Shown here in pieces: positions 4,702-36,100 of a stretch of DNA of 64,000 nucleotides. The stretch comes from Trypanosoma brucei. Its lineage: Eukaryota. Positions within the stretch are counted from its first letter, which is position 1, and each line of letters opens with the position of its first letter. Under the pieces are notes generated by a model. The model made no database searches, was not told where the DNA came from, and saw only the letters and a program-made list of their open reading frames with translations. Location of the stretch: the NCBI GenBank assembly GCA_000002445.1, contig CP000070.1:1280001-1344000 (forward strand), given 5' to 3'. A program made the position numbers and the translations under genes.

Positions 4702-7147
4702 TTGAATAATTCCGCGTCACACTCACAACCTCCTACGAGTATCCGAATATTTTTTCTTTAAAAAAAAAACTCTAATCGAAAATGAATCCTTGCCTCTCCC
4801 TTTTCACAACTTTTGCTTGCTGGACTTCTATCTTCCCTTTTGATTCTTTTCTTGACTTCCTTTCTTTTTTTCCCCCCCCCCCTCACTTCCTCCTCTTCCT
4901 CCTCCTCCCTTTCGCCTCGATGTTTCCTTCACAAGTTTTGTTTGACTCACACCGATAACGTCACTCAACCCTGTCTTGTATATTTCTCCTTCCCCTTCAC
5001 AATCAATCAAACCGTATTTCCAATTTTCTTTCGTCCCGTTTCAGTATGGAGACGCCTTCCTTCTCCTCAGATTATTGATGATATTTATCGCTATGGGTTA
5101 TGTAAAGGAGTGAACGCATAAGTAATTATCTCTGCACCTACCTGTGAAAAGACGATCCCTTTCTTCACAATTTATTTTCTTTTTGCTTTCCTGTGCCTTT
5201 CCTCCCTAATTAACAGTGGTGGTCTCGCGAGAGACTTTAAAGAAAAGACCCCCCCCCAAAAAAAAAAAAAGAAGACAAGAGGAGAATCCACTTGGAACCA
5301 CCACTAACACCACACACACACACACACACCACACGTTGCTGCTGCGGCTAACTCGACCCCGAACACAACCAGCGCGCCCACGAAAACCTTCACTAACACG
5401 CGTTCCTCGTGTTTTCTTCTAATTAAGAAAAACAAAAAGAAAAAAAAGGACCAAAGGGGAAAGGCAAAAAAAATAAATAATAATAATAGATAGATAGATA
5501 TCATAGTCGCAACTGCTGAACACGCATGTGCACATTAAAATTATTTTCAAAAAAAAAACACTCATATGACAAGTAATGTAGGTAACTTACAAAATGGCAC
5601 CAGGAAAACAACTTTCTCTTTTTTTTCTTTCAGCATCATAAGCAAGTTTAACCACCGACATACATGAGGAACAAAACCCTTATTTACAGGCAGAAGTCGA
5701 AACTCATAACAAATCTGTTTATGAAGGTTAAAACTTTCGTTGCTATCGGGTCGCAAACTCCACATAAGAATTCATACATAACTTGAAAACGGTATTTTCA
5801 GACAGGCGTAATAATTCAATTAACCCTTCCATTCCATTTTATGCTTCACTGCGAGCCATGCTCTGACGGTTCGCAATAATAGTAATGATAGTAACATATA
5901 TAATTTCTCCTTTCCAAGGGTGAAAATAAAAATAAAATAAGAAGAATGATTTTAAAATGTAATGCACCTACTAAAATTCACGGCTGGCAACCCGAACCCT
6001 TCACTTTTCCTTTTTTTTAAAAAAAACCGCGCATATCGTGAGACGTAAGCACATATATTATTGTTGCACGGAAACAAATCTATGACCTTTGATGGGAGTA
6101 GGAACAATTAAAAAAAAAAAGAAAGAAAAAAAAAAAGAGAAAAACATGCCAATAATATAAGTTTCAAAAAAAAACAGAACCAGGCGGCGGAAGCAGCAGA
6201 AACGGTACATGGAAAGAACAGACATAAATACATAGTCATAACACAATAATTTGACACGAAAAGAAACAAAAAGAAAAAAAAGACGTTGGAACAATACTTG
6301 CGGCACGCCACAGAACACTGAAAACATACATCAATAGGCGACCAAAACTAAAGCCCAAAAGTCAACAACAAAAAAAAAGGAAAAGGAAAAGAAGTAACAA
6401 ACAAAAAAAAAAGAGACACCCAAAGACATTTAATATTTTTTAAACAAAAAAAAAGGGTGATGGGAACAGAAAACATAACAAAACAAAAAGATGCAAAAAT
6501 AAAGTGATGGAAACGACAATGTGCGCAGACAAAAAACAAAAAAACAGTACTCAAATGACATGCTCTCCATTTTTTTTTCATTTCTTTCCTTTCCTTTCCT
6601 TTCTATCTCCTTTTTCTTTCTTAAAAAAACAAAAATAAAAATAAATTGAAAAAAAAACAAACAAGTTATTTGGAAGGGATGGAACGCGGGAGGGACACGG
6701 GTTCACATGACGTACGTTCGTTTTACCTTTTTTCTTTATTTCTCTTTACTTTTATTTTTATTTTCCTTTCATCACATTTTATTTTATTTTTTTTTTCTTG
6801 CCTGAAAATGACCAGTGCTTTTTTTTCCCCCTTACCGCCTCCTCCGCCCCATTTTCCCCCCCCCCTCGCTTCTCCCTGCATGCCAGCTGCGGCAACATGA
6901 AGTACCGCATGGGAGAGAAATAAAATATTAAAAACAAAACAAAAAAGAAAGGGAATGGGGGTAAGAAAAAGTCGTTTTTCCTGTTCTCAATTGTCACATT
7001 CGTCTCTCCACTTCCGTCATTGGTTTCTTTCGTTTTGCTATCCCCTTCCTTTTTTTCTTTTCTTTATTCCCTCCTCCTTCTTTTTTTTTTTTTGAAACCC
7101 AAACCCATACGTTCATCCTCTTAATATTAAAATTTTTAAAAAAACAT

Positions 7148-7176
7148 GCATGCACACACACACACACACACACACA
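7148..7176. repeat. (CA)n microsatellite in the long 4.7-8.5 kb intergenic region
   Basis: Direct read: catgcacacacacacacacacacacacctc. Confidence 0.9.
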
Positions 7177-8489
7177 CCTCATATCATCACAATACATGTT
7201 GTTGTGCTCTAATTTTTTCCCGTATCTGCACACACTTTTGTGTACCTGTATGAATGCGTGCTTCCTATCCTAGTATCTTATATAAATAAGTAAATAAATA
7301 AGAAACATATATAATCCTTTGTGCCTTCTAACACTTCACCTACTGCTCGGCTATTTTATCAACATTTCGATCCCTCCTCTCTTCCCTCATCAATTAATAC
7401 CTAAACTCCGTAACTAAACCTAACTATACGCAAACATGCAGTTTAATATATATATATATATATATATATTCGTGCATTTGTCACCTTCTTTGCGTTCTCT
7501 TCATGCTTTTCATTATTCCTTCTCCAGTTCTTTTCTTTTCTTTCTCTTTCTCTTTACGTCCTTTTACGCAATCCACTCTGTCCTTTACTGTTTCCCTCAG
7601 CAAAGGAAAGGCAAAGAAAAGTCAAAGAAAAGTACCATGCATTGATACCCCTCGCCCCACATGCGCTCACGCACAAGAAAAAAAAAAGAAAATGGAAACA
7701 CAAACACAAACCCACAAGCACAGTGGAAGGGAAAGGGAAAGGAATATAGTGTGGAAATAAATAGGAGAGAAAGAGCGGACGGCGTTCACAGTGAAATTGT
7801 GTTTAAACTCCGTTGCAAGTCGAATAATGATAATAAGTAACAAAGAAAAGAACACAGTGGCTTAAAATCCTCTTGTGAATCAAAGAAACAAAAAAAGAAA
7901 AAGTTTTTCCCACCTACAAGCGTATGTATATACATATAATCTCATATATAAATAAATAAATATATATATATATATATATATTTGTATAGTTACTTATATA
8001 TTTATTTATTTTTATGTCGTAACTGCCATCACGCGAGGGGGCTAAACTCGCTCTCTCCTCCCTATTGTGTTTTCATTTCACCACACAATGTGGTCGTTCG
8101 ATTCCCGCGTATCAACCTTCTTTTTTTTTTCTTTCCTCTCGCACCCATACACACACGCTTACGCATACGTGAACTTCACACATTTCAACGCTATCATGGT
8201 GTCTTTCATTTCACTTCCAACCACTTGCCACATACACACGCACCAAAAAAAAGAAAAATTGAAGCAATAGAGACAAGCCCACCTTCACGCGCCCATTTAT
8301 CTCCGAGTTCCTCGGGAAAAACGCAAATCTAATATGTACATATGCACATATGTTTAGATGCAAGGTCCACCGTGGGTAAATGTCCAAATAAAGACTGAAA
8401 AGATGAAAAGGAATGAAGTCACGCTTCATGGACGTATTCTTCGGTTCATTTTCTCCCACCAACACCAACACCACTACCACCAACACTCC

Positions 8490-11400
8490 TCATCGTTTCC
8501 TGTCTCCTGATAAATGCTGAGAAATCATGCGCTTCAGAAGCAAAGCCCCTTCACCAGGGCGAATTTGGAATTCACCGTTCAAAACCTCCGACGGAACAGT
8601 AAAAGAGAAACCAGGCTTCCTGCAACCTTTATCACCTTCGCCATCGCCGCTGTTTGTCCTGTTTGCGTTGCCACTTGTACGCGGTAGTGGAACGGAGAAG
8701 GTCCCGGAGCCGGGGGCTGCCGTGGTGGTTACTGAGCGAGGAGCCACCGGCAGTTTATTGCTAGCGACAGTTGGAGCATATGTTGCACCACAAATATTCA
8801 GCCCTGCATCTGGTGAAGTCGCCTTCGACGATGCCAATTTCCCCATAAGTTCTGCTACTTGAATGCCGCCAGAACCACCACTTACCGTTAGAGATGAAGG
8901 TGACACGACGTTCCGTCCAGCTGCGATACCAGAAGCACTTGTCTCCCCCATGGCGCTACGTGGCTTCGGGATGCTTGGGGTACCTTCCGTGGATGGAATT
9001 CCCACCCCACGCCCATGTTGCTGTTGTTGATCGTGATCGTCCTCCTTTTGCTGCAACTTCTTGCAGATACTCTTTAAATTTTGGACAACGGACCCATTTT
9101 GTCCTTGTGACGACTCAGATTCGTCACCCGAAGGTTTATTCAAAACGAGGAGTGTTGACAATTTCGATATCGAACCACGAGGCTGACGCAGCCTGCCGTC
9201 AAAGTAACTTCCACCAACGAAAGGGTCATCATACACAACTTCCGCGTCGTGGCCAGTTGATAGCAAACGAACAACGGTACCAGTTGCACCGAAAGGTGCT
9301 GCACCACAGGCACGGCAGTTCACAACGCGGGAGCCAAGGTGAACTGTCTGCTCCTGGGGAAGAGGTAATTGGGAAATGTGTCCACCAGCACATCTTGTGA
9401 CAGGAAAGTAGAGACACCGCCGCGCCACCGAGCTCAGCATTCTGTCCTCCAACGGCCGTGGCCCTTGACGGTCCAGCTCTTCTTCCAACATTCGCACGTG
9501 TTCTCGTGGAAAAGCGTCATCTTGGGCAGCAACAAGGGGGACGCTTTGTATGCCACACGATTCGATAAACTCTTCGATCGAACGAAGAACGTCGTCCACG
9601 TCGTTATCAGCCCACTCGCCCGTCATGAACTGCGGGGGATCCAGAGCTTGGGGTGAAGAGGCAATGCTTTCCAGTCGGTCAACAAGTGGTTTGAACCTCT
9701 CCACGTACGTTTTGATTAAGACAACGGCTTTCCGCGAGAACCATGTCATGTACTGCATGGGACGGGAAGATCGGGGACGAGACTCGCCCTTTTGCAGGCT
9801 TTCCAAGTAGTGACCCGCCGGCGCAGCATCTTGGACTGGCCTGCCAAATGCATCGTCACTATTTTCCAGCCCCGCACCCAACCTGCCACCGGGGGCTCCC
9901 CATGCTTTGCCACCACGCACCGTTTGTTTCGCGTAACCGATGCGAACGAGGTTATTCCGCGTGTAAATGAGGCCGAGCCCAATCTCACGGCAACCGTACT
10001 GAGGGGATGTGCGTACAGAACCTACAAGATGCTTTAGAGCCAAGGGACCAACACGGACCTCATTGCTCACATCTGGCATTGATACCCAATTGCGAGACGA
10101 AGCATAGTCAAGCAGCACGTGCGGAATAGAAACTGGCTTTTGAAACACCCGTGCAGCGACAGTAAACGTCCCCTCAGCATCAGGGCTGGATCTAACCACA
10201 ACACCAGAACTACCATATAGCTGCTGATCCTTCCCCTTCATACTTTTTGGCTCAGCTCCAACCAGTATGACTCTGGAACCAAAGCGGTTATCCCATTCCA
10301 CACGATCCCTCTCAACGTAGCGAGAGTCTTCCGTTAATTTCACGTCTTGCAAGCGCGCTACAAGGGGCAATGCATAGCATGTTTGGTCCTTGGAAAAGTT
10401 GCGCACCACACGCCCCTTTCGGGTCATGCGCATTCCAGTAAAAAGGTTAACATACACGAGTACTGTCAGGTTGCTTACAGACATTCCGAGCTTCTCCCGC
10501 ATACACTGTCGATGTGTTTCCAATTCCTTCGCTATATTCATTGAAGCGTCCCGGTTTAGTTCCCGTACGTTGGCACCACACGAAACACCCTCTAGATTTA
10601 TATTGGCGCTGATGTGCACACGTTTGTCGCTAACCGCTACCACACGTGCGCGGCGGTAGTGCGGGAATCCAACAAGAACTTCCTGCCCAACAAGCGTTGC
10701 GACCTCATGGGCGGCAATAGCGTTGAAGCTGTCCTTCAACCCTAGGAGCAAGCTCTCACCGCGTGCGGGCATGCCGAAGATAGTCACAACACCGCTCTCA
10801 CGTTGTGGGGTGATGTAACGCCACTTCGACCGAAGTGTCGTGAACCCTTCAAACTGTTGCTCACCAGTGCACACGCCTGTGCAGAGCCGCGGAATAAACT
10901 TTGTCAAGGGGGGGAAGTCGAAAGCGTCACGGCGAACGGTGGTTCTTCTCAGGGGCCCAAATAACGAGTTTGGCACCTCGTAGGCTTCAATAGTGGGATC
11001 GTAGGCATAGAGGGTTGGTAGACCTAGGCGGTTGTTCTTACGTTCCTCCGGCGTTACTCGATCTTGCACGGTTTCATACGCGGCAAGCAACGTCCGTTCT
11101 TCGATGAAGGGAATCAACACTACACCCTCCCAGGGTGCGCGTGTGCCCTCTCGATCGATTTGAAGCTTTTCTGGAAAATACCTGGCCAGAGGACTGTTTT
11201 TGCTTCGTAGTAACGGCCAATAGGCACGGGGCATAGAGCGGTACGACATAGGCGGCAAAACCGCGAGCAACTGTTGGTGGGGAAGAAAAGGTTTACCGGG
11301 ATCAAATTTAACACAAGCCGCCACAGCGGGAAGATTAACCAGATCGCTGGCCATTGGCGCGTAGTGGTGTGGAAAGTACCACTTCCACGATGGCGGCCCC

Positions 11401-12746
11401 TGGTAGTAGTAGCCAATAACCCACATGATGCCCTCAATGTAGTGTAGTCTTAGTTTGGCCATATCTTCCCCTTGTGGATCCCACCCCATGGCAAACTGAT
11501 GCTTGTCTCGGTAGTAACGGTCTTTGTACTCCCTTAACGACTCCACAGTCGACGTTGATATTGTGGCAGCCCGGTGTTCGCCACATTGTTGTGCCATTCT
11601 TCGCTGATACTCCTGTTCCTGCGCCTCTCGAGCTTTAATTGTGGTGAATTCTAGGTCGGCAAGCCCCTGCAGCCACCCCTCCACGGCTCGCCAGTCAATG
11701 CGTCCCATGTCGGTTAGGTACGTGTGGGCCAACAGCACCCGCTGCGCGTAAAGGTCAAGCATTTGCACCAAACTTCCATCGTGGATACCAAGCGTTGGGA
11801 TACTCGGTAGAAAATCATTACCGATAAAAAAGCACATGAGCACGAAGTCGTCTACAACTCGCTCTAGGTCGTAGTTGGTCGGGAGCTTGTCACCAAGCCT
11901 CTCGCGAACCTCAAGGTCGAGATAATCACGCAAGACATTCACATGAAACAAAACAAACTCGTCAGGCTTCTGATAAGACTTGTCAGCCACAATGCCGTCT
12001 GATTCGTCCTGCTCACGCTGTTCACGTGCCCGCCGCGATTCCTGGCCAAACCCAAAGGTCACCACCTCACGCAACAGCACAAAATGAGGCTCGTGAGTAG
12101 CGAGCGCTAGCATGACGAGATCTGCATCAAGTCCGTACATGCAGTGCGTTTCGTTCGGACCGTAGTCCGGCTGCATCTTCCTCCGACGGATAAATTCAAC
12201 AATTTTATGCTCACCCTCACCGGGGTGGTCATGGCCCGAGTAGATAACGCTACAGTTTTGCCACGCAGGGTCCGTCGACATCTTCATCATGATAAAGTAT
12301 TGAAAATGTTCACTTATGCGCACCATGAAGTCCGTTCCCGGGGTAATGCAGTTACTGTCAAACACATCAGCTTCCTCGGGAAGTTCCTCGCCGCGAGATA
12401 AAGCCTCCTCCCGTGCAACCATCATTTCGTACCCACTGCGGTAACGCCGCTGCCGTTGCTGGTTCATCTTGGCTCGTGGGGCCACGCCATCAACGGCAAG
12501 GAAGAAGCACTTTCGGGGCTGAATCGCATTGAAAAGTTTTTCCAAGTACGAAAACATGGCCTCGACCATAGCCTTCTCCGTGGGCGCTTTGTGTGTGGCA
12601 TCCGCATCATTGGGATGTGTGCAGTTGTGAATAATACCATTCATATCCAGGTACAGATTATCAACTGGAGGTGGAAAATCACGAAATGGGGTGATCACTG
12701 AGGGGTAGCGCTCCGCTACCCATCGAAAGAATTTTGGAACACCCAT
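8490..12746 (-). CDS. XRNA: 5'-3' exoribonuclease, XRN1/XRN2 family (XRNA-like, 1418 aa)
   Basis: N-terminus MGVPKFFRWVAERYP....LYLDMNGIIHNC is the signature XRN_N start. Further conserved XRN blocks are present: FFLAVDGVAPRAKMNQQRQRR, GEGEHKI, YGLDADL. A long low-complexity C-terminal tail matches trypanosomatid XRNA. Confidence 0.9.
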   Translation of the reverse strand: MGVPKFFRWVAERYPSVITPFRDFPPPVDNLYLDMNGIIHNCTHPNDADATHKAPTEKAMVEAMFSYLEKLFNAIQPRKCFFLAVDGVAPRAKMNQQRQRRYRSGYEMMVAREEALSRGEELPEEADVFDSNCITPGTDFMVRISEHFQYFIMMKMSTDPAWQNCSVIYSGHDHPGEGEHKIVEFIRRRKMQPDYGPNETHCMYGLDADLVMLALATHEPHFVLLREVVTFGFGQESRRAREQREQDESDGIVADKSYQKPDEFVLFHVNVLRDYLDLEVRERLGDKLPTNYDLERVVDDFVLMCFFIGNDFLPSIPTLGIHDGSLVQMLDLYAQRVLLAHTYLTDMGRIDWRAVEGWLQGLADLEFTTIKAREAQEQEYQRRMAQQCGEHRAATISTSTVESLREYKDRYYRDKHQFAMGWDPQGEDMAKLRLHYIEGIMWVIGYYYQGPPSWKWYFPHHYAPMASDLVNLPAVAACVKFDPGKPFLPHQQLLAVLPPMSYRSMPRAYWPLLRSKNSPLARYFPEKLQIDREGTRAPWEGVVLIPFIEERTLLAAYETVQDRVTPEERKNNRLGLPTLYAYDPTIEAYEVPNSLFGPLRRTTVRRDAFDFPPLTKFIPRLCTGVCTGEQQFEGFTTLRSKWRYITPQRESGVVTIFGMPARGESLLLGLKDSFNAIAAHEVATLVGQEVLVGFPHYRRARVVAVSDKRVHISANINLEGVSCGANVRELNRDASMNIAKELETHRQCMREKLGMSVSNLTVLVYVNLFTGMRMTRKGRVVRNFSKDQTCYALPLVARLQDVKLTEDSRYVERDRVEWDNRFGSRVILVGAEPKSMKGKDQQLYGSSGVVVRSSPDAEGTFTVAARVFQKPVSIPHVLLDYASSRNWVSMPDVSNEVRVGPLALKHLVGSVRTSPQYGCREIGLGLIYTRNNLVRIGYAKQTVRGGKAWGAPGGRLGAGLENSDDAFGRPVQDAAPAGHYLESLQKGESRPRSSRPMQYMTWFSRKAVVLIKTYVERFKPLVDRLESIASSPQALDPPQFMTGEWADNDVDDVLRSIEEFIESCGIQSVPLVAAQDDAFPREHVRMLEEELDRQGPRPLEDRMLSSVARRCLYFPVTRCAGGHISQLPLPQEQTVHLGSRVVNCRACGAAPFGATGTVVRLLSTGHDAEVVYDDPFVGGSYFDGRLRQPRGSISKLSTLLVLNKPSGDESESSQGQNGSVVQNLKSICKKLQQKEDDHDQQQQHGRGVGIPSTEGTPSIPKPRSAMGETSASGIAAGRNVVSPSSLTVSGGSGGIQVAELMGKLASSKATSPDAGLNICGATYAPTVASNKLPVAPRSVTTTAAPGSGTFSVPLPRTSGNANRTNSGDGEGDKGCRKPGFSFTVPSEVLNGEFQIRPGEGALLLKRMISQHLSGDRKR

Positions 12747-14951: not shown

Positions 14952-16061
14952 TCAGTCCACCAGCACCTGGACCTGCTTTTCGCGCTCTTGGCTCCGCCCA
15001 ACAGGCGAATCCGACGACCCCTTCCCGTTTCCGGCTCCGCAATGTCTCCGTGGTGACCGCAAAGCCGGGCTTGTTGTGGCTCCTCCCTGTTCCGCACCCT
15101 CGGCAACCGCCTCCCCACTCACCAACGGGAGTTCGCCACCGTCCCGTGTATCCATACCAGCATCAGCGCAGGCGCCCTTGACACTGTGGTCACACGGAAA
15201 TCGCGGAACCCGTGCGTGCCGCTTCCCCACAATATTGCTGCCTGACTTAAGGGTCCCCTTCTTGGTGTATTCAAAGTTAACGGTGCGGTTGCGGTGGTCA
15301 ATCTCAGCTCCCCGCGCCAGATCCATCGTGTAGTCACCCACTTGGTACACTTCTGCGCAGTGGCAGTGCCTGCTGTTCACCCCGCCGCTCACCTCATCAC
15401 GAAGATACGCCCTGGGACGGTAGTCGCAACTGCCCTTCATAAAGTCGCTCTTTACATCACGCACACCCTGAGGATGATCGTTAGTGCGTAGCAAGAACGC
15501 GTTGTGACTCATGGGCGTAAAATCATAGCCAGCCTGGGAAAGCACAGGTGGTGGGCAGTTCTTGTACAGCACCTGAGGATGGAAACTGCGAGCCGGCGGG
15601 GTGCTGCCAGAAAGATGGTGGCCCCGCCCGTCTACGATGGCGCGCAGCCGGGGAAGCAGTGTAGAACGGTTCTTGAGCGTGCAGTCAAGTGTCTCCTTGT
15701 GGAAGACACCGTTAGGGTCGTATGTAGAAACGCCCTTCAATGTGCTTGGATCGTTCGGATTAGTACGCACGAAGGACTCAAAGGAGCCACAGGAGAACTG
15801 GATGCGAGCCTTTAGGAACCCCCAGTGCTTTGTGTTGGCCTCTTCCACAGCGTCAAGCGCATCACGGTAAGTGGCACCATGCTTTAACACATGTGTTTGC
15901 CATCGAGCAAGTGGATGTACGCGTGTCGAAGTTGTGTTGATATCAGTCATGTTGTAGCCCTTCTTCCGGAGCTCCTTCTTTGGCGGAAGCACCAGAAGTG
16001 AGTAACTCACTGGCTGACTAAGCGAAGGTCCACAGAAAGAACCGGTGGTAGTGGAGAACAT
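14952..16061 (-). CDS. Conserved hypothetical protein; the true start may be the internal Met at MTDINTTS...
   Basis: 369-aa ORF in array orientation. It shows non-repetitive, balanced composition and includes the segment PPKKELRKKGYNMTDINTTSTRVHPLARWQTHVLKHGATYRDALDAVEEANTKHWGFLKARIQF. The C-terminal third is Gly/Ala/Ser-rich. No family assigned from sequence alone. Confidence 0.5.
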   Translation of the reverse strand: MFSTTTGSFCGPSLSQPVSYSLLVLPPKKELRKKGYNMTDINTTSTRVHPLARWQTHVLKHGATYRDALDAVEEANTKHWGFLKARIQFSCGSFESFVRTNPNDPSTLKGVSTYDPNGVFHKETLDCTLKNRSTLLPRLRAIVDGRGHHLSGSTPPARSFHPQVLYKNCPPPVLSQAGYDFTPMSHNAFLLRTNDHPQGVRDVKSDFMKGSCDYRPRAYLRDEVSGGVNSRHCHCAEVYQVGDYTMDLARGAEIDHRNRTVNFEYTKKGTLKSGSNIVGKRHARVPRFPCDHSVKGACADAGMDTRDGGELPLVSGEAVAEGAEQGGATTSPALRSPRRHCGAGNGKGSSDSPVGRSQEREKQVQVLVD

Positions 16062-17056: not shown

Positions 17057-19282
17057 CTACAGGAATGCTTCCAGGTCGAAAACGCTCAGCGGAGCTCTTC
17101 TCGACTGCGGGCCCCGTAACAGATCATTTAACGAGTCTACACGCTTCGCCATTTGTTTCTCTCCTAATGACGTGGTCTTCGAGGGCCAACCTTCCGCATA
17201 CGGCCACGGAAACTCACTCAGGGTGTCACAGTCCAGGACACTGTACTGCGCAGGTGCCTTTTTTTTGGGACGCCTTTGCTGTCGAGGCTGCAGGTTTCGG
17301 GTCGTATGACGCGTGCCCAATTGCCGAATATCCATCCGGATGGCTTTGCCCACAGCATCCGGTATTATATCCACATCATCGATAGCTAGCTGCCGCATTA
17401 ATGAGCCGACCCCGGGTGCGGTCTCAGTGCGGTCGAGTTCGACCTTCTCCCTGCACTCGATTAATTGCTGCTTTTTGAACCACTTGCCGCCACCACCACC
17501 ACCACTGGAGATCAGCGATGCGGCGTAACGCTTAAGGCACGGATGTGAAGATATTGCAAGACCATCCCTCACTGTGAAGTCCATCCCCACCTCTGCGGCT
17601 TGTCGTTTACGGCAGATCCAACCACCTGCGCCCACACTTCGTGTGTTTTGCTCGTGGTGCCCCGTCGCATCGTCATCGTCATAGCCATCCACCTCTTCAT
17701 CACTCCATAGCTCTTGGAAAAGGGGGTTTGGATCCGTTAAACGACCCACAGCAGCGGCCCCGACGCGTCCTCTCTTCATGCCAACACAGGGTCTTCCCGT
17801 CTCTACCTGCGTAAGGATCATATTTGACTCACAGTCGTGGTCTTCCTCAGCATCTTCTCGCTCCATCTCCCCCTGCATTCGACACCCACATTCCTGCTCT
17901 TCTCGCATTTCTTGCCCCTCTTCGGTTGCAGATCGCCCCGTTTGCTCACTGGGAAATCTCTCTGTCTCGTCATATCCTCGTCCCATTTTCTTTTCACAGC
18001 GGTGGTCTTTTTGTTTCGGGTTCGCGTACGCACTCCCTCGCTCAACGGACTTGCAGCTACACGCCGCCGGCTGCTCGCTCTCTCCCGATGGGGAAACATT
18101 GGAGGAGAGAGACAAAGTGGGGAGTGGCTTCAACCACACGACGCTTCGAATGAAGGCCGTGTGCTCCACGCAGCACATGCCCATCGCATATTGTAGCGTG
18201 CGAAGGGGCCCTAAAACAGGAAGCTCCTCCCGGTCGCTGTACAAAACAATGTGATTACAATGCTTTGCGTAAAATGCACGGACTGCGGCTTCGTCCCCAC
18301 AACTGTCAACCGCGTCGAGCAGCGACAAATCCAGAACGGCGCAACCTTGGGTAAAAGGCAGAAACACACGTACCTCATCGTAGAGAAATTGCTGGACGAC
18401 GACAAACGTTGTACCAGCAAACAGTCGCTGCCGTCTTTCCTTTAGTGACGAATCCGAGAGCACAACCTTCAACCCCGCCGAAATCTCACCTGCCGCGGGT
18501 GGTGCTCTGTTGTCTGACACAAAAATTTCGCTGCTCTCGCTACTCAGAAGTGCAGACCACGAGCTGTCAACTGATGGAAAATATGCACGTGGGTCCTGAA
18601 GCTCCTTTTGCGGGTTGCTCTCCCTGCCCTCCTGCAGCACCTTGAAGTACTCAGGGGTTACAATGTGCGAGGAGAAACGACACAACACAGCAACGGCAGC
18701 GGGTGTTATGGTTAAGTGTGGGGTAACGAGATAATCTGCCAGAGCGATATCCGACACGGTTACAGCACCGCATCGGCTCATCCATTCATACATGCATCCA
18801 TCGTTGTAGTCGACTGTGAAGACGCGCATGGGGCTCCATCTCAAAGAAAGGGTCGTACCACGAGCCCCCAAAGTCATGGAAAACCCCCTCCACAGCGCAG
18901 AGTTAACAGGAACACAACACGAATCACCCCTGGACAATTTAACACGCGTCGGAGTGGCACCGGAGAGTTGAACATCCCTCTCCACGGCGTGCGTACTGTC
19001 ATTGTCACCGTCGATGCCGCCACGATTGGGGGAAGAGCGAAGTTCGGTACCGTACTTTGATGTGTCGGTGACAATAAGAGGCAGAAGATCCTTTCCCTCC
19101 TCGTTGCTGAGCTCCTGAGGTTGGGCAAGTGAGGGAAGCAATCCTACCCTTAAAGTGAGATGCTTTCTGCTGATACTGGGATCCCCCGCCAGCGTTATGT
19201 GACACTCCTTGCTACCTACCGTGTAAGTGGCGCCCCCCACAAGCCAAAAGCGGGCCTGACCATTCATAAACACGATCCACAT
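17057..19282 (-). CDS. FHA-domain plus BRCT-like DNA-damage-response protein; candidate NBS1/nibrin orthologue
   Basis: N-terminal FHA signature FWLVGGATYTVGSKECHITLAGDPSISRKHLTL...SKYGTELRSS (G-K/R...S-R-x-H...N/G-T). A BRCT-like block follows (LFAGTTFVVVQQFL...HIVLYSDREE...WLKPLP). A basic KWFKK motif resembles the NBS1 MRE11-binding NFKKFKK motif. The acidic FxF C-terminus (SVFDLEAFL-COOH) resembles the NBS1/Ku80/ATRIP PIKK-binding tail. Confidence 0.5.
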   Translation of the reverse strand: MWIVFMNGQARFWLVGGATYTVGSKECHITLAGDPSISRKHLTLRVGLLPSLAQPQELSNEEGKDLLPLIVTDTSKYGTELRSSPNRGGIDGDNDSTHAVERDVQLSGATPTRVKLSRGDSCCVPVNSALWRGFSMTLGARGTTLSLRWSPMRVFTVDYNDGCMYEWMSRCGAVTVSDIALADYLVTPHLTITPAAVAVLCRFSSHIVTPEYFKVLQEGRESNPQKELQDPRAYFPSVDSSWSALLSSESSEIFVSDNRAPPAAGEISAGLKVVLSDSSLKERRQRLFAGTTFVVVQQFLYDEVRVFLPFTQGCAVLDLSLLDAVDSCGDEAAVRAFYAKHCNHIVLYSDREELPVLGPLRTLQYAMGMCCVEHTAFIRSVVWLKPLPTLSLSSNVSPSGESEQPAACSCKSVERGSAYANPKQKDHRCEKKMGRGYDETERFPSEQTGRSATEEGQEMREEQECGCRMQGEMEREDAEEDHDCESNMILTQVETGRPCVGMKRGRVGAAAVGRLTDPNPLFQELWSDEEVDGYDDDDATGHHEQNTRSVGAGGWICRKRQAAEVGMDFTVRDGLAISSHPCLKRYAASLISSGGGGGGKWFKKQQLIECREKVELDRTETAPGVGSLMRQLAIDDVDIIPDAVGKAIRMDIRQLGTRHTTRNLQPRQQRRPKKKAPAQYSVLDCDTLSEFPWPYAEGWPSKTTSLGEKQMAKRVDSLNDLLRGPQSRRAPLSVFDLEAFL

Positions 19283-19354: not shown

Positions 19355-19385
19355 AATCACACATTGATAAAGAAGAAAAAAAAGA
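19355..19385 (-). promoter_or_regulatory. Polypyrimidine tract (CTTCTTTTTTTTCTTCTTTATC on the minus strand) about 80-100 nt upstream of the 17057-19282 start; likely trans-splicing/polyadenylation coupling signal
   Basis: Pyrimidine run on the coding (minus) strand, followed by AG dinucleotides before the ATG at 19282. This is the canonical trypanosomatid SL-acceptor architecture. Confidence 0.4.
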
Positions 19386-19604
19386 AGCCAGTCCAGGGAG
19401 GTGAAACAATGGGAAACTAATGAGTAAAAGAAACATTTAATGATACTTATTTCGTATAACATTAAAGAAGCTACACGAGTGCTCGCCTGGGGTGCCCCCG
19501 TCTTAACAATGACCTTTGGACAAGTATGCGACGACAACGCAGCATCAGCCTCCTCTGTTACCTTTACAAGGAACCCATCTTCCTCATGTCCCATTCCACC
19601 TGTT

Positions 19605-20339: not shown

Positions 20340-21305
20340 TTAGCCAAAGGGCGATTCACAGGCCTCAACTGCCAAGCGGTCTGCCATTTCATTCCCATAC
20401 ACACCTGCGTGCCCCGGGACGTGCTTCAACTGCAACGCGACAGCGCGTGCAGCTATCGCTGCTAAACTAGCCTTGAAGCGGAACTCCATAGTGAAACGTT
20501 CCGCGCACCGGGATAAGTGCCTATTACGCAATTTCGTCAATTGACTCCACAAGTCGATGTTAGCAACGTCGCCTCCACCGGCAGTTTTAAAACCGTTGCG
20601 TTCCCACCGGTGCAAGTAGGAATTGACACCCATTACGGTGTACTTGCTATCACTGTATACACACAAATTGTAGCAAGGGTGAGAGTCCAACGCAACGCGC
20701 AAGACATGGATGAGCGCGGAGAGTTCCGCACGCTGATTGGTCTGGGGTTCGTGAGCTGGAAGAGGGAATTTAAAGTTACGGCTGTCACCGTCGCCATAGA
20801 ATCCACCGAAGCCAGCACGTGGTCGTCTTTCACGGCTTCGACTTCCGTTATTTCTGCAGGCCCCATCAACATACACAACAACCGCCTCCCGTTTCCGGGC
20901 CTCTACCCATTCTGGGGAGAGAACCTGCTGCTTACTTTCGTCATCCACTTCATTACCGTCATCCGCAGCATCCACCTCCACAGCATCTAACGTCACATCA
21001 AGTGAAAGCGCGCGCTTTACACCCACCAAAACAGGCGTGTGCGAGTCAGCCACAAGTGATGTGCCGACACTTCCCGGCTCAACGTCCTGCACCCCACTAG
21101 CATAGGCCTGCGCCTCCTGTAAAGTCAAAAAAGACTTAAAACGGGCTCCAGAGAACCCTGAGACCTGCTTCTGGCACTCCTCCCAGGTACTGAAAACACC
21201 GGTTTGTCTGCCAACCGCCACCGCGTAAAACCTTTTCTTTCCCATGGACGTCGACACCACCGACGAAAAACTAAGTTCTGCTATTTTCCAGTATCTATTG
21301 ATCAA
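20340..21305 (-). CDS. RNH1: Ribonuclease H1 (hybrid-binding domain + RNase H catalytic domain)
   Basis: HBD: FYAVAVGRQTGVFSTWEECQKQVSGFSGARFKSFLTLQEAQAY. RNase H domain: VVVYVDGACRNNGS...TNQRAELSALIHVL...VYSDSKY...HVPGHAGVYGNEMADRLA, carrying the DEDD catalytic residues. Confidence 0.9.
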   Translation of the reverse strand: MINRYWKIAELSFSSVVSTSMGKKRFYAVAVGRQTGVFSTWEECQKQVSGFSGARFKSFLTLQEAQAYASGVQDVEPGSVGTSLVADSHTPVLVGVKRALSLDVTLDAVEVDAADDGNEVDDESKQQVLSPEWVEARKREAVVVYVDGACRNNGSRSRERRPRAGFGGFYGDGDSRNFKFPLPAHEPQTNQRAELSALIHVLRVALDSHPCYNLCVYSDSKYTVMGVNSYLHRWERNGFKTAGGGDVANIDLWSQLTKLRNRHLSRCAERFTMEFRFKASLAAIAARAVALQLKHVPGHAGVYGNEMADRLAVEACESPFG

Positions 21306-21963: not shown

Positions 21964-24705
21964 CTATTTTCTCCCGTTTTCCGAGGCCCATTTGTTTTCC
22001 CCCATGGCTCGACCGGTACTCCCAGTTTTCGCTTCACTCTTCCCGCGTTCTCGTATGTCTCGTTCTTTCGCACGAAACATCTCATCCACTTTGCTTTGAT
22101 GGAGCTCGCTGTCCGTAGGAACCCAGAAGAAGGGCTGTTTTTCTGCCTTTAGTTTGCGAAAGTTGGGTTCCCAATCAAAATTATGCAGCTTAACGTGGTA
22201 GTCGATGCGCTCCCGCTCCCAATTATCCCACTTGAGGAAAACTTTCTCCTGGTCATCGTGATCCATTGCGCCAGTGACAGTGAGGTTGTGCATGTGCGTC
22301 ATAATGTCCATGTCGTTGAGCACCTTTCCAGGACCCTCAAGGTCAAGCTGTGAACACAAGAATGATAACTCCTCGCAGAGATTCTCAGTGTCGTTCCATA
22401 TGTAGTGACCACCGCTGCTGCGCACACGCAGAATAAGTGGTTTCTCCACAGGATCCACACCTTTGCGCCGTCGCTGTTGCCGCAGCTTCGCCACATACTT
22501 TAAACTATTCCAGGGAGGCACGCGGTCATCGTCGAGACAAACCGAAACCATCATACCAGGGTAGGTCACGCGATCATTGATGTTATGGTACGGATCGTAG
22601 TGAAGCAGCCGAGTGTAATCCTTAGGGGAGTTGAGCGGGTCACCCCAGTCGTCCTGCTCGGCCAACGAGAGCGGAAGGTCTGGGTCCACCATCGTGCTTA
22701 TGACATCCAAAAAAGGTGACCGCATTAATACGTTCCCGAAGAGACCGCACCCTCGCATGTTCATGGCTGCCGCTATCGGTACGCATCCTGCACTATTGCC
22801 CGCCGCTACCATGAGCTCCGGTTTCGTGTACCCCATATTGACCATATGCTCACAACAAGCGATGAAGTCGTGGACCGCGTTTATCTTTTTCTCACCCCTG
22901 CCCTGCTCGGCCCAGTTGGGGAGTTCGCCACCACCACGCACGTGGGCAAAGGCAACAGTCCAACGCCGGCGTAGCATCCACATATACGGTGCCAACTGAA
23001 AGTGCATGGACGGTACTTCACCGTAAGAACCGTAGACATAGATAAAACAGTGCTTGGGTGTGTTGGGCTGCGCCTCGAAATCCGTCGCTTCTTGCACGAA
23101 TGCATCACGCCGGTGACAGATAGTTATGGGGACCTGCGTGCCATCCTTGGAAACGCAGACATCCCGATATATAGTATAGGGCCACATGTAATCCCACGGC
23201 GTAAATTGCTCTGACTGTCGTTGTGTAAAAATGGCTTCCGGGCTGCACATCCGGCACTTACCGGAAGTCATTTCGCTATTAAAGTTGAAGACGCAATCTT
23301 TGCTGGGTTGGCAAAGACTACTGTACACAAAACTAATAGAGTCCTGGTCAAAGTTTTTGTTCAATCCAGGCGTCACACAAGCGAGTGGAGGGAAGTGAAT
23401 CACCAGGTCGTCTGCTCGCGACCGCCGCGCAGTATCATCAATGCCTTTCCCGCACTTGATGATGCGGATGTGGTTAATGCGCTCAAAGGCAAAATGGGAT
23501 TCATATAGTACAATGTGATCGTGAAAAAGGTCAATATCAACTATCTGCACATCGTCTCGGTGTGGCACAAGCTCCTTCCATTCAGCGTCCATGCCATACT
23601 TGAGAACCACCTCCTCCCGTGCGTATACCACACGGTGATTTGGACCCCTGTCACCCACGACCATGAGGAAATGACCCATGTAGTGCTCCAGCCAGTTCCA
23701 GCTTCCCTTGCCGGCAATCTCCACCGGCCGTGCATCGGGGAAGAAAGCTTGCATTTCACGTGGAATCTTTGGAAACGAAGCAGGCAACACAAGGGCACTG
23801 CACTTCACTTTGGAGTCGGATGTGATCACTATGTAGGCGTTGTCCTTCGTTTTTCGAACATCAACAAAAAATTGCTCATCATCATCTCGGTATAGCTCCA
23901 CGGGCGGTGGAAGAACACCGGGACGTATCTCCTGCATTATCACCGCATTTGGACGATTAAGCTCATTGGATTCTGTGAAGTAAAATTGGTTGTCCGATCC
24001 AAACTCGATACTTACTATGTTGCGACCGCGGATCACATGGAAAAGGCTGGCGTTGTCGATGCTTCGCACATGACAAATGTAGCGGTCGCCTCCCCCCACG
24101 GAAAGAGTATACGCTAGGTACTTTCCGTCCTGAGAAACACGGCAGACTCCCACATTACAATGGGCGTATCCAAAGTGTTGTTGCAGAGCGGACGGGTTGA
24201 TCAGTTCCTCTGCGAGCAAATCCACTTCACCGAAACGCTTACGGTAAAACCCAATTGCATTGGGGTCACCGCCAGGGACAACACGTGTGAAATAGATGTA
24301 ATCACCTATTCGCTCCTCTCCTTTGTCAAACCCACCCTCACGACTGGTTATTACGACCTTCGCATCAAGTTCCGCCCACAAACGCGCTTTGTTGTGCTTG
24401 AAATCAAACTTGCTGTCAACCAAAGTAAAGTGCCGTTGCTCTTGCCGCACATAGCTCTGAGTGCGACGATCGAAGAGATCTTCCATGTACTTGAACGGAT
24501 CTGGTTGGTCGTTTCTGCCGTGCAGCAGAAAAGACTGTGGAACTTCCTCCGGTAACGGCCCGTCGAGGAACGTCAGCGGATATACGTTGCGTACCTGCGG
24601 GAAAAAACGGTTCACGAGCCGCCTCCCAAACGCGTACATCGCATTGGATGTTGGAACCCACGGATAGAGTGCCGTCATGGCCACCTCGTCTCTACTGTCA
24701 AACAA
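21964..24705 (-). CDS. Prolyl oligopeptidase family (S9A) serine peptidase, oligopeptidase B-like, 913 aa with an N-terminal extension
   Basis: C-terminal alpha/beta-hydrolase peptidase domain. Nucleophile motif GNSAGC is a variant of GGSNGG. Downstream catalytic Asp (DDDRVPP) and His (SSGGHYIW) are present. The upstream portion is consistent with a beta-propeller. Overall length and order match OPB-like peptidases of trypanosomatids. Confidence 0.85.
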   Translation of the reverse strand: MFDSRDEVAMTALYPWVPTSNAMYAFGRRLVNRFFPQVRNVYPLTFLDGPLPEEVPQSFLLHGRNDQPDPFKYMEDLFDRRTQSYVRQEQRHFTLVDSKFDFKHNKARLWAELDAKVVITSREGGFDKGEERIGDYIYFTRVVPGGDPNAIGFYRKRFGEVDLLAEELINPSALQQHFGYAHCNVGVCRVSQDGKYLAYTLSVGGGDRYICHVRSIDNASLFHVIRGRNIVSIEFGSDNQFYFTESNELNRPNAVIMQEIRPGVLPPPVELYRDDDEQFFVDVRKTKDNAYIVITSDSKVKCSALVLPASFPKIPREMQAFFPDARPVEIAGKGSWNWLEHYMGHFLMVVGDRGPNHRVVYAREEVVLKYGMDAEWKELVPHRDDVQIVDIDLFHDHIVLYESHFAFERINHIRIIKCGKGIDDTARRSRADDLVIHFPPLACVTPGLNKNFDQDSISFVYSSLCQPSKDCVFNFNSEMTSGKCRMCSPEAIFTQRQSEQFTPWDYMWPYTIYRDVCVSKDGTQVPITICHRRDAFVQEATDFEAQPNTPKHCFIYVYGSYGEVPSMHFQLAPYMWMLRRRWTVAFAHVRGGGELPNWAEQGRGEKKINAVHDFIACCEHMVNMGYTKPELMVAAGNSAGCVPIAAAMNMRGCGLFGNVLMRSPFLDVISTMVDPDLPLSLAEQDDWGDPLNSPKDYTRLLHYDPYHNINDRVTYPGMMVSVCLDDDRVPPWNSLKYVAKLRQQRRRKGVDPVEKPLILRVRSSGGHYIWNDTENLCEELSFLCSQLDLEGPGKVLNDMDIMTHMHNLTVTGAMDHDDQEKVFLKWDNWERERIDYHVKLHNFDWEPNFRKLKAEKQPFFWVPTDSELHQSKVDEMFRAKERDIRERGKSEAKTGSTGRAMGENKWASENGRK

Positions 24706-28035: not shown

Positions 28036-31000
28036 AAAGGAAAACGCCTTTTAATTCAGTACTCTTTCCTAAATCTGACACGTGCAAAAAATAAAACACC
28101 GGAAACCCCAGAGCGCATATACCCCCGAATTATCATTAGTCGTAGTTAGAGTTAACACTTTTTTTTAAAAAAAGGAATGGCTACAACACCACCAAACAGT
28201 AGGGAGCATCGGCACACAAATCCCGTAGTGTGAGAACAATCAACACCGCGGATGAACAACGTTGTCAATCTCTTCCCCCCATCACCTCCAAAAAAAAAAA
28301 AAAGCAAACAACACCTAAACAAAAAAAAGCGTGACTCTGTGTCCCCCAAACTATCTCAGTGGCACTTAAACAAATTTGAAAAGAAGACGATTGTACACTG
28401 AAAGGGAGCGACCGTCTTCACATTTCTGCTGTTACATATTGAAATAGAACTAACCATGATTATTTTTTAAAAAAATAATAACAAAAACAATATTAGCCTC
28501 GTATACACGCGGACGGTTGTAGGTAGAATCAAAAAACGCCATGACTGCACTAAATTGGGTAATACTACACGAATTCAGCGAAAGAAAATAGAAACAATAT
28601 TGTTAAGGTAATAACACTAACGGATTCCACCATCACCACCGAGTAGCAACAACAACGAAGCGCAAGGGACCACCTTCGAGCCAAATCATCTTAAAATTAA
28701 CAGACGAAAGGCTCTTCACAAAATCATTTGAATTGGTTCATCTAAAGCGAATTCAAAATTCAAACCATCTTTTTGGCCTTCTGACAATACTCCACAGCCT
28801 CACCTGCGTCCTGAGCGTCTCCGCTTGCACAATCCGGCTGGTATTTATTAAATTTCGCGCATGGAATAACGTTACCACACCAAAATTTATTTGTTCCATA
28901 GTTTATCCACGGTTTGTGAAGCACATCGTTATATATGCTCAACTTAAAGTCGCTGGCGGAGCAACAAACAAAAGAAAAAATAGTTGACTTAAAAAAGGGG
29001 GAACAGAATCTGACCTCCCCAGTGTCTCAGTCACATCGGAGTCAACCGCCTGGAAAATACACAGTTTTCTTTGAAATGTGTATAGCAAATTCGTGTGCTG
29101 CGTCAGCCCCCGCTGTAAGCTCTAAAAGAACGACAATGGCAACAAGCAATTTAGTTTGTAGCAAAATAAGTGGAAGATCGGCATGGACTCCACAACAGTT
29201 AGGCAATACTCTATACCAGACGCGAAGTAGCTACAATATAGCACCGAAGGCGGCAACTCCGTGCGCATTTATTTTTTTTTTAAGCAGCAAATACAATAAC
29301 GCATGTCACTTGTGATGTATGACTTTAAAAGAAGCTGAAATTCGGAGGAGGAACAATCAGTCCTCTAAAAATCGCAACAAATTTAATAGGGGTAGTTGTT
29401 GCATCAGCTTTTCCGCATCAGTTGTAACAAATGTATGTACGGAGAGTCCAATCAGTGCTTGAACAGCAACTCACCCCCATTCCATAGTGCTCGGAAAAGA
29501 CACTAAGGACGCAGCTTATCTAGCACAACCCCTTTTTTTAAAAAAAAAAAGAAACAAAAGAGGTTTTAAAGCCTAGGGTAGCAACAGCAGCCAAACTAAA
29601 CGCACGGATAGCCGATATGACGGCAAGCTACCCGAACAGAAGCAAAGAGACGGAAATTTTTACATATCGTCACAATACCCCCTTCCTCAGCAATGATTTG
29701 AATTTTAAATCAAAAAAAACGTCCGGTACAGCACAAAGTAAAAAATATGATAAAACTCCCCGCATGTGGCGGCAACGCAGTAACTACCTCGCCCACCGAA
29801 ATAATCAGCAAAGGCGTTCTATTTTTTTTTAATGTATACACAAGCACTTACACGAGGGAAGAGTACAATATTTAGCGAAAGACCGGCGGGATACTAACAG
29901 GTAGAAGTCACCTGCAGAGGGGACACTGTCACCACTTGCACCAACGTTTTTTTTTAAAGGTATAGAAGAAAAAAAAGGACATTTAATATTACAACAGTAT
30001 CTACTTATCACAACACCTTTGGGCACACCTTGGTATGGGACAAAAGGGGGGGGATCAAAAATGTACGAAAAGCTTGCAGTTGAACACATCACTAGCATCT
30101 ATCCGGACCCCATATAGATCACATTTCCGAGCTAATTACCGCGCTAGTAACTACACATGTCAGTTTAGCATCACATATTTGATAGTCACCAAGCACAAAC
30201 AGTTGAGGATAAATACTGTTGGATGGACCCCAATATACAGATATTTATTCACTAATGAATAATAAGTTACAAGCGAATAAAAAGCATGTGGAAAGCTCCA
30301 ACATGGCCTCATCCAACTTAATATGTCAGCTGAAGAGTAGTGGTAAACGAGGGTTTGCACCGCTAACATTAATAAGGAAACAACAACCATGTCCCACAGA
30401 AGACCGAGGCTTTGCCTCTGGGGAGAGAGCAAGAGGGTAACGCCCGCGTGACTGTTTACAACTATTACAGTCAAGAAACGCACGAGCAGCAAAACCATCT
30501 AAACGAAGATAGATCAGTGTTACGCTCCCGTGAGAAAAATAAACTGCTACGGCGACATTCTCCCATTTCAACCACCCAAAGAGCCCATTCGTCCATCATG
30601 TCACCTGGTTGTCCCAAATACACCTGGAAAGCGAAACTTACAGCTGGGCATCAGCGGGTCACAAAGAAGGGAAAATCCAACAGAAACTGAAGGCCTCAAC
30701 AGCACGTGGTTTACTCTAATGTCGTTCTGGCTACAATCAGACGATCAGTAATCAGCTATCAGATAGAAACGGAAGGAACAAATAGCGCTAAAAGCCCTAC
30801 AGTTCCCTGTTTTCTCCACGTCGCAGCGAGCTACCCACTCCTGCACAGCGCGGATATTACACGCAACTACAGTACGTCACGAATGTCCCCGCACAAAAGA
30901 AAAAGTAGTAAGGGCGGTGAAAACGTCAAAGTATTTCTAACCCCATAATACGAACGCACAATCACTTCAACGAAAAATTGTTGACAAACCCTCATTATAT

Positions 31001-32913: not shown

Positions 32914-32941
32914 CGCACACACACACACACACACACACACA
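32914..32941. repeat. (CA)13 microsatellite (reads TG on the minus/sense strand of the left array)
   Basis: Direct read: gcgcacacacacacacacacacacacac. Confidence 0.9.
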
Positions 32942-35199: not shown

Positions 35200-36100
35200 C
35201 GGAACATTTTATATCTCACTGAGCCGCGCGGGTGCCGGAACCAGTGGATTGACTGGGACCTTCGGCAAGTAACAGAGTGAGGCCGCGGGGATCTTGCGTA
35301 TGGACTTGTTGGCATGTGCTTCGGTGCAACTCGAGCTGCGTTGGACCCCCGGTGGCCGGCAGTCCGCCGTGCGTCGGCGCGGCCGCGGGTAACCCGAGGC
35401 AATTGCCATTCCATTCTTTCTGGGAGGGCTTTGACACGTCGGGGTTTATGTGTACGGCCGGCGGCTAACCTAACTGCCACGAAAGAACAACTCCAATAAG
35501 TTGTTTCCGTCTTGATTCTCGAGGTTTCAGGGATCCCGTATTAAACCATCCGGCGTGGGGGCGCACGGTCAAAGTCTTCTTTCCACATGCGGTGTGATTG
35601 ACTGCGAGGTCGTGGGTACCCGGAGATAGTTTGAGGGTAGCTCCCCTTTGTAAGCTTTCCCCCCGCCCGCGCTACGGTTACTTCCGTCTTCTTTCCACAA
35701 TGGGATATTCCCAGTGGAATGGGTTCCGGGGCCTTATCACCTCTCGTGCGGGAAAATTCTGACTCTTTGTGCCCTGTGGGGTTGTCTTTGATGACGGGGT
35801 CGGAGTTATCTTGAGACAATTTCACATTTCCTTCCCCCAATACGTTCTGTCGGGCGATGTGTTCTCGTACGGTTGCCCCTGCGTTGCGTTCAACTGGTTG
35901 ATCCTCGCGCCCGTTGCGCCTTACACGGAGTTTTGAGCCCCCCTTCAGGGTTCTGGGCGTTACCGGCAGCTGGGTGGTGGTTGCGGCTCCTTGCCATGAG
36001 TTTCATGTCCAGTGGACGCTGGAAGACATCTGAGGCAGCGCTCATTTTGATAGTATTGGCTATGTTGCTGTTTCTGACGTGTGTGTGGGAGGCTTCGCTT
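35200..36100. other. GC-rich island inside the strand-switch region (short direct repeat GGCCGCGGG at about 35281 and 35381); function unknown
   Basis: Local GC is visibly above 60% against an A/T-rich surround. No ORF with coding character. No match to known snRNA, 7SL or rRNA that I can recognise. Confidence 0.3.

Follow-up and report, generated by a model that had tools for sequence, protein, structure and literature searches.

The question that this locus raises is which gene of Trypanosoma brucei encodes the third subunit of the MRE11-RAD50-NBS1 (MRN) complex. It was shown that T. brucei MRE11 and RAD50 influence homologous recombination, signalling by gamma-H2A and which variant surface glycoprotein (VSG) donors are chosen in antigenic variation (PMC7897489), while no study of the third subunit in T. 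brucei was found in the literature searched. Here, a stretch of 64,000 nucleotides of chromosome 7 was analyzed (contig CP000070.1, positions 1,280,001 to 1,344,000, referred to as the window), in which an intact open reading frame (ORF) on the minus strand had been proposed as candidate NBS1 from the letters of the sequence. The gene, Tb927.7.4920, is given the product name 'hypothetical protein, conserved' in a published listing. The proposal was supported by profile and structure comparisons. The gene product is very probably orthologous to NBS1/Nibrin/Xrs2 and thus the kinetoplastid form of the eukaryote-specific subunit that joins MRE11 and RAD50 in the double-strand-break complex. Tb927.7.4920 is a previously unlabelled member of the known NBS1 family with a lineage-specific re-wiring of motifs. 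The gene is placed as follows:

17057..19282, minus strand: complete ORF from ATG to stop, 741 codons plus stop, Tb927.7.4920 by gene order, candidate NBS1 (identity to the 741-amino acid (aa) protein of T. equiperdum OVI and to the 606-aa model of TREU927; identifier mapped from the neighbouring genes)

The T. brucei protein alone gives weak signals. Pfam reports an FHA domain with an E-value of 0.027, which is below the curated cutoff, and a phmmer search against the PDB returned human nibrin as best match with E=0.0016, with a second weak collinear stretch over BRCT1, in which IVTPEYF is aligned to nibrin IVKPEYF. A scan with NCBIfam gave no match, as expected of a prokaryote-oriented library. 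As the T. brucei sequence alone is only marginal, the strength of the case comes from the family profile. When 1.84 billion representative proteins were scanned exhaustively with phmmer, 35 matches were obtained, about 30 of which clearly form one kinetoplastid-type family with an MW(I/V)... N-terminus, an N-terminal module of ~390 residues and common tail motifs. Members of this family were found in T. congolense, T. vivax, T. rangeli, Leishmania spp., Lotmaria passim and Trypanoplasma (Cryptobia) borreli. All trypanosomatid members are labelled as 'hypothetical' or 'FHA domain-containing', and the orthologue of Trypanoplasma borreli is tagged K10867 NBN/NBS1 in the KEGG orthology. The same scan recovered the 'Nijmegen breakage syndrome 1 protein' of Andalucia godoyi and a sturgeon protein, for which Pfam reports Nbs1_C (2e-32) together with FHA and NIBRIN_BRCT_II. 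A word-indexed homologue search, with the protein itself, the full alignment or a trimmed alignment free of low complexity as query, recovered a single protein compared to the ~30 relatives found by exhaustive HMMER in the same collection, and for this family its negatives do not amount to absence.

A profile built from 28 family sequences and compared to the PDB matched human nibrin with E=7.2e-29 in a collinear alignment that covers residues 12-248 of nibrin, i.e., its FHA domain, BRCT1 and the beginning of BRCT2. The next matches were S. cerevisiae Xrs2 (3.6e-5) and a generic FHA domain (0.01). The NBS1-specific Pfam family NIBRIN_BRCT_II is matched by 15 of the 28 members (best 2.8e-8) and Pfam FHA by 23. 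In hhalign, the trimmed N-terminal alignment was matched to Andalucia NBS1 with a probability of 99.7% (E=4.4e-26, 254 columns) and to the sturgeon NBS1 with a probability of 98%. In the PDB profile search, hhalign and Pfam, the homology of the family to NBS1 exceeds that to other FHA or BRCT families. Judged from these sequences, Tb927.7.4920 falls into one family with members in Trypanosoma, a Leishmania clade, Lotmaria and Trypanoplasma, and profiles link this family to the NBS1 proteins of jakobids, vertebrates and yeast.

The predicted structure points in the same direction. An FHA N-terminus followed by a BRCT-like region, as named in the original prediction, is present in the sequence and in the model. 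The N-terminus is FHA-like (...VGSKECHITLAGDPSISRKH...TDTSKYGT), and AlphaFold2 with the family alignment models residues 1-390 confidently, mostly with a predicted local distance difference test (pLDDT) score >90, as a beta-sandwich followed by two alpha/beta units. The absence of a tandem BRCT behind the FHA domain had been named as a possible refutation; the tandem BRCT is found in the model. In a Foldseek search against the PDB the top seven matches are all Nbs1/Xrs2 FHA-BRCT-BRCT structures (S. pombe Nbs1, S. cerevisiae Xrs2) with E-values of 6e-13 to 4e-11 over ~400 columns. In the model, the N-terminal FHA domain is fused to BRCT1-BRCT2 in what is predicted to be one compact NBS1-type module with the following parts:

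18833..19282, minus strand: FHA domain, aa 1-150, with low-confidence loop insertions at aa ~47-68 and 84-112 (AlphaFold2 beta-sandwich with pLDDT >90 outside the loops; aligned to nibrin residues 12-110)
19202..19219, minus strand: VGSKEC, aa 22-27, with Ser24 at the position of the canonical phosphothreonine (pThr)-binding Arg, human NBS1 R28 (family and nibrin alignments)
19160..19177, minus strand: SISRKH, aa 36-41, corresponding to S42/R43/H45 in the FHA phosphopeptide pocket of human NBS1, retained (alignment to nibrin SISRNH)
18608..18832, minus strand: BRCT1, aa 151-225, including IVTPEYF at aa 207-213, which matches nibrin IVKPEYF
18419-18607, minus strand: helical linker, aa 226-288
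18128..18418, minus strand: BRCT2, aa 289-385

It is most improbable, and by these data largely refuted, that the protein belongs to another FHA/BRCT family of the DNA damage response (MDC1/Mdb1/MU2-like, PNKP, aprataxin/APLF or TopBP1/Brc1/PTIP-like) and merely resembles NBS1. Such a resemblance is seen in secondary structural matches to the tandem BRCTs of MDC1, Brc1, PTIP and TopBP1 and to many FHA domains, as well as in weak Pfam matches to MU2_FHA in three members and to RTT107_BRCT_5 in three members. These matches, however, cover one module, either the FHA domain (~90-100 residues) or the BRCT pair (~170-250 residues), and the next Foldseek tier, formed by the BRCT pairs of MDC1, Brc1, PTIP and TopBP1 and restricted to the BRCT pair, is about a million-fold weaker than the Nbs1/Xrs2 matches. 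Among solved structures an N-terminal FHA domain fused directly to a BRCT pair is found in Nbs1 and Xrs2 only, and Pfam detects no kinase, phosphatase, HIT or zinc-finger domain in the T. brucei protein. Profile searches might have assigned the protein to PNKP, aprataxin or an MDC1-like family, as had been considered at the outset; instead nibrin and Xrs2 lead.

The individual candidates were rejected on the following grounds. A mediator of the MDC1/Mdb1/MU2 type needs an FHA domain far from a C-terminal BRCT pair that binds gamma-H2A(X), whereas here the BRCTs adjoin the FHA domain and the C-terminus is disordered. For PNKP, aprataxin and APLF the catalytic or zinc-finger Pfam domains are missing and the structural matches comprise the FHA domain only (~96-100 residues), and a TopBP1-type protein was rejected by the profile search and by Foldseek, in which the matches are confined to the BRCT pair.

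Behind the folded module the protein continues in a long tail, of which the identity to relatives is 5-24% outside a few motif islands, making it almost unalignable. The tail and its islands are:

17060..18127, minus strand: intrinsically disordered C-terminal half, aa 386-741 (pLDDT <50 almost throughout)
17717..17746, minus strand: GRLTDPNPLF, aa 513-522, the trypanosomatid-conserved GR(R/K/L)TDxxPLF (regular-expression survey of the family)
17525..17551, minus strand: SSHPCLKRY, aa 578-586, in which the family motif LPxYPCF is degenerate (P581 and C582 nearly invariant)
17468..17485, minus strand: KWFKKQ, aa 600-605, the family-wide KxFxKQ, putative MRE11-binding motif (F602, K604 and Q605 invariant or nearly so)
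17360..17383, minus strand: IDDVDIIP, aa 634-641, the family-wide acidic (V/I)DADD(I/V)(I/V)P, ~30 aa after KxFxKQ (family motif survey)
17258..17275, minus strand: RRPKKK, aa 670-675, a basic patch and possible nuclear localisation signal (sequence; similar basic runs in relatives)
17060..17086, minus strand: SVFDLEAFL-COOH, aa 733-741, (I/V)FD(I/L/V)(D/E)x(I/L/F)(F/Y), putative docking motif for PIKK (ATM/Tel1), found at the extreme end of practically every full-length relative

Two of these islands were compared to motifs of NBS1. KxFxKQ is aligned by hhalign in register on the KxFxK core of NBS1, both with the sturgeon protein (NF-KRFRK, E=0.031) and with Andalucia NBS1 (GKRFRKQ, E=1.9e-4), which are weak values, as is expected of a six-residue motif, and its position relative to the C-terminus follows the order of NBS1. 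The extreme C-terminus of the T. brucei protein reads ...DSLNDLLRGPQSRRAPLSVFDLEAFL, and its last ~8 residues are near-invariant in the family, acidic and aromatic, with F735 being nearly invariant. The tails of NBS1, Ku80 and ATRIP that dock to PIKKs are likewise acidic and aromatic. The terminal motif was compared to the human motif and to the sturgeon sequence. In 200,000 shuffles of the T. brucei protein K.F.KQ occurred in 321 (0.16%) and the terminal pattern in none; being rare in shuffles and recurrent in essentially every full-length relative, the two motifs are not adequately explained by chance.

The mid-tail motif GR(R/K/L)TDxxPLF has no recognised counterpart in canonical NBS1. LPxYPCF is degenerate in T. 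brucei (HPCL) and T. congolense (CPCP) and intact in T. vivax and others, and FNxFDT, a further tail motif of the family, was absent from all three salivarian trypanosomes in the regular-expression survey. The segment DSLNDLL had been counted to the C-terminal motif by the original prediction. This part of the claim failed, as the stretch is ≤10% identical even to T. congolense and conservation is limited to the final ~8 residues (VFDLEAFL). The candidate DSLNDLLRG (aa 716-724), which was compared to human ESLADDLFRY, was accordingly rejected as PIKK motif, and the likeness of DSLNDLL to human ESLADDLF is probably coincidental.

The phosphopeptide pocket of the FHA domain shows a mixed picture. 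The FHA domain is the most conserved segment of the protein with 67% identity to T. congolense, from which it follows that the gene is under purifying constraint. Across the family S38, R39 and H41 hardly vary and the pocket residues of SKYGT are also kept. At the position equivalent to R28, T. brucei has Ser, T. congolense Ala and T. vivax Cys, whereas Lys is found in the Leishmania sequence and in T. rangeli, and Arg in deeper-branching relatives. In the alignment this looks like a progressive loss of the Arg along the trypanosomatid lineage; the residue marks canonical function and not descent from the family. No member of the family has the BRCT1 Lys that corresponds to human K160 (Ala in T. 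brucei according to the nibrin alignment), and the T. brucei protein contains only two S/TQ sites. By these differences in the FHA Arg, the K160 equivalent and the S/TQ sites, phospho-dependent binding of partners may be altered in African trypanosomes.

The FHA domain of S. pombe Nbs1 binds Ctp1 through the canonical Arg, a residue that is missing in T. brucei. One may consider the protein as a descendant of NBS1 that was partly decayed or re-purposed in African trypanosomes, with an FHA domain that no longer reads pThr and degenerate tail motifs, and in which, e.g., CtIP/Ctp1-type recruitment was lost. The exchange of the FHA Arg for Ser (T. brucei), Ala (T. congolense) or Cys (T. vivax), the family-wide absence of the BRCT1 Lys, the degeneration of LPxYPCF in T. 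brucei and T. congolense and the absence of FNxFDT in the three salivarian species can be read in this way. We regard it as improbable, as the ORF is intact and near-identical across five T. brucei-group sources, the best-conserved segment is the FHA core itself with SISR-H and SKYGT retained, and KxFxKQ, DDVDIIP and the C-terminal motif are retained as well. Moreover, decay would modify the assignment to NBS1 and not replace it.

Several points weigh against the assignment of Tb927.7.4920 to NBS1. The canonical set of pThr-binding FHA residues (human R28, S42, R43, H45) is incomplete in T. brucei, as the Arg is missing. Pfam Nbs1_C matches none of the 28 family members. The basic patch KWFKK (aa 600-604, nt 17471-17485) had been likened to the MRE11-binding NFKKFKK of NBS1; the likeness stood for the KxFxK core, on which the conserved KxFxKQ is aligned in register, but the N-F dipeptide is absent and the alignments to NFKxFxK are statistically weak (0.03 and 2e-4). 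Similarly, the claimed PIKK recruitment motif at the C-terminus stays plausible by its near-invariant, acidic and aromatic extreme end, but the predicted F-x-F shape was not confirmed, since the spacing is F-D-x-(D/E)-x-x-(F/Y) instead of a strict F-x-F/Y. Interaction data for the protein were not found, and its binding of MRE11, RAD50 and ATM is putative. The gene was scored with 'No effects' in an RNA interference (RNAi) screen with methyl methanesulfonate (MMS), a result that is uninformative because the ratios of MRE11 (1.04) and RAD50 (1.35) were also unremarkable there, and the protein is absent from the DNA-damage phosphoproteome. Finally, TriTrypDB and two papers give the name NBS1 to another locus, Tb927.8.5710.

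Tb927.8.5710 is located on chromosome 8, in contrast to Tb927.7.4920 on chromosome 7, and it is known here by its label and locus only. In a supplementary table it carries the TriTrypDB name 'recombination initiation protein NBS1, putative'. It was cited as T. brucei NBS1 without further analysis in two papers, one of which is PMC7897489, and in one of the two its mRNA was increased 1.67-fold after a VSG-proximal break. In the literature search, no mention of Tb927.7.4920 in a main text was found and no characterised trypanosomatid NBS1 was described. If Tb927.8.5710 were the working NBS1, Tb927.7.4920 would be a separate FHA-BRCT-BRCT adaptor, either an ancient paralogue or one that serves a different purpose, for instance as a checkpoint mediator. 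The product name in the database and its use in the two papers speak for this. The name, however, is a database label, for which the papers cite neither an experiment nor a domain analysis. The exhaustive phmmer search from the window protein found one kinetoplastid-type family only, did not detect Tb927.8.5710 as a relative of it and revealed no second trypanosome paralogue or relative. For the family of Tb927.7.4920 alone a match to human nibrin with E=7e-29 and a unique structural match over three domains were obtained. To our knowledge, eukaryotes have a single NBS1. Taking both sides together, the division of roles between two proteins appears unlikely, and Tb927.7.4920 is preferred as NBS1.

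Compared to the known NBS1 proteins, the candidate shares with human nibrin (NBS1/NBN; PDB 8bah chain C) the N-terminal FHA domain fused to BRCT1-BRCT2, collinear with E=7e-29, and the motifs GxK-C, SISRxH, SKYGT and IV(T/K)PEYF. Like human and vertebrate NBS1 it also has a long disordered tail, in which a basic K-x-F-x-K motif and an acidic and aromatic C-terminus come in the same order. In contrast to the vertebrate proteins, the kinetoplastid family has no Pfam Nbs1_C match and possesses KxFxKQ instead of NFKxFxK, and its terminus is (I/V)FD(I/L/V)(D/E)x(I/L)(F/Y)-COOH, whereas the human one is DDLF-x-Y. Further differences from human NBS1 are the exchanges of Arg28 to Ser and of BRCT1 Lys160 to Ala, the large FHA loop insertions and the two S/TQ sites of the T. 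brucei protein, as well as the additional lineage-specific motifs LPxYPCF, DADDIIP, FNxFDT and GRRTDxxPLF of the kinetoplastid family. To S. pombe Nbs1 (PDB 3hue, 3huf, 3i0m, 3i0n), of which 3huf by its entry title shows the FHA domain in complex with Ctp1, and to S. cerevisiae Xrs2 (PDB 9ee7) the identity is only 12-18%. Andalucia godoyi NBS1 (EukProt ANDGO_06310) is matched by hhalign from the FHA domain through BRCT1 to the beginning of BRCT2, and its GKRFRKQ has the kinetoplastid form KxFxKQ, which suggests that KxFxKQ may be an older form shared beyond kinetoplastids. In the retrieved Andalucia sequence the terminal IFDxDxLF, DADDIIP and LPxYPCF are absent.

How this gene stayed 'hypothetical' is plausibly explained by the divergence of the T. 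brucei sequence together with a truncated gene model. The TREU927 reference protein (XP_846115.1 / Q57XA8) comprises 606 aa and begins at Met136, thereby missing the whole FHA core, while the models of DAL972, T. equiperdum and T. b. equiperdum have 741 aa. In the window the reading frame is open from the upstream ATG (19282), codons 1-135 corresponding to 18878-19282, and the MW(I/V) N-terminus of the 741-aa form is kept across the family. A polypyrimidine tract at ~19366-19386 followed by an AG near 19345 lies ~60-100 nt upstream of the ATG, the AG being the predicted spliced-leader acceptor. The 741-aa protein of T. equiperdum OVI is 100% identical to the window ORF product, that of T. b. 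gambiense DAL972 differs in two residues, and aa 136-741 match the 606-aa model of T. b. brucei TREU927 exactly. On the DNA level the window and the T. equiperdum contig differ in 4 of 8,226 positions.

The ORF was identified as Tb927.7.4920 because of its order relative to Tb927.7.4900 and Tb927.7.4910. Supplementary tables describe Tb927.7.4900 as 5'-3' exoribonuclease A (XRNA) and give S151, S230 and S293 as phosphosites of Tb927.7.4910, and all three positions are Ser in the neighbouring 369-aa ORF. The neighbours, named by their Pfam assignments, all lie in one minus-strand transcription unit with the candidate:

8490-12746, minus strand: XRN1-type exonuclease (Pfam)
14952-16061, minus strand: 369-aa ORF, Tb927.7.4910, 'hypothetical protein, conserved', without Pfam domain (Pfam scan, gene order)
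20340-21305, minus strand: RNase H1 (Pfam)
21964-24705, minus strand: S9 peptidase (Pfam)

S230 of Tb927.7.4910 is a significantly changing phosphosite with a log2 change of -2.64 in a DNA-damage phosphoproteome (PMC11408851, supplement), and a damage-responsive phosphoprotein therefore adjoins the NBS1 candidate. The order of RNase H1 and candidate is the same on the T. equiperdum contig. A database protein of 2110 aa represents a fused gene model, in which RNase H1 domains (aa 503-785) precede a candidate-like FHA domain (aa ~941-992), and the order of RNase H1 and an NBS1-like gene thus recurs in another organism.

Elsewhere in the window, a region of ~10 kb (28036-37901) separates the minus-strand block, which ends at 28035, from a plus-strand block starting at 37902. 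It contains no ORF of at least 200 aa, no tRNA and no Rfam match, and GC-skew and AT-skew switch sign within it. It has the look of an unusually long region of divergent strand switch (transcription start). Scans of the whole window for tRNAs and with Rfam gave no matches. On the plus strand two tandem ORFs of 260 aa (43906-44688 and 45590-46372) have equal Pfam scores for ribosomal protein L19e and constitute a tandem duplication. The lowest GC content of the window (0.34) is found at 6001-8000, between an ORF ending at 4701 and the one starting at 8490.

By analogy to the MRN complexes of yeast and human, in which NFKxFxK has this role, KxFxKQ (KWFKKQ) would bind across the MRE11 dimer, and the flanking LPxYPCF and DADDIIP motifs may supply extra contacts to MRE11. 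The VFDLEAFL terminus would dock ATM/Tel1 and couple break recognition by MRE11-RAD50 to H2A phosphorylation and homologous recombination, while the FHA-BRCT module would tether the complex to its partners at break sites. This tethering may be weaker or non-canonical in African trypanosomes because of the loss of the pThr-binding Arg (Ser24). The candidate would thereby act upstream of two processes described for T. brucei, H2A phosphorylation that depends on RAD50 and MRE11, and repair that depends on RAD51 (PMC7897489). A more far-reaching reading, which we offer tentatively and hold to be somewhat short of an even chance, combines these steps: Tb927.8.5710 would be misannotated and Tb927.7.4920 the real third MRN subunit in a re-wired form, with MRE11 docking via KxFxKQ and LPxYPCF/DADDIIP, with IFDxDxLF in place of FxF/Y for kinase recruitment, and with an FHA domain that lost the pThr Arg in African trypanosomes, implying that resection control by CtIP/Ctp1-pThr is missing or has been replaced in the very organisms whose antigenic variation relies on recombination.

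The finding is an orthologue assignment and not a new kind of system, and it matters mainly to the field of DNA repair and antigenic variation in trypanosomatids, where the candidate corrects, or at least challenges, the working NBS1 gene assignment. If Tb927.7.4920 is the true NBS1, experiments that rely on the label of Tb927.8.5710 may target the wrong gene, and the TREU927 model needs an N-terminal extension of 135 codons to take in the FHA domain. How the sensing of breaks is linked to ATM signalling in trypanosomatids could then be tested directly via KxFxKQ or the last eight residues. The family would also constitute a deep-branching data point on which features of NBS1 are ancestral, such as FHA-BRCT-BRCT, the KxFxK core and the acidic/aromatic C-terminus, and which are lineage-specific.

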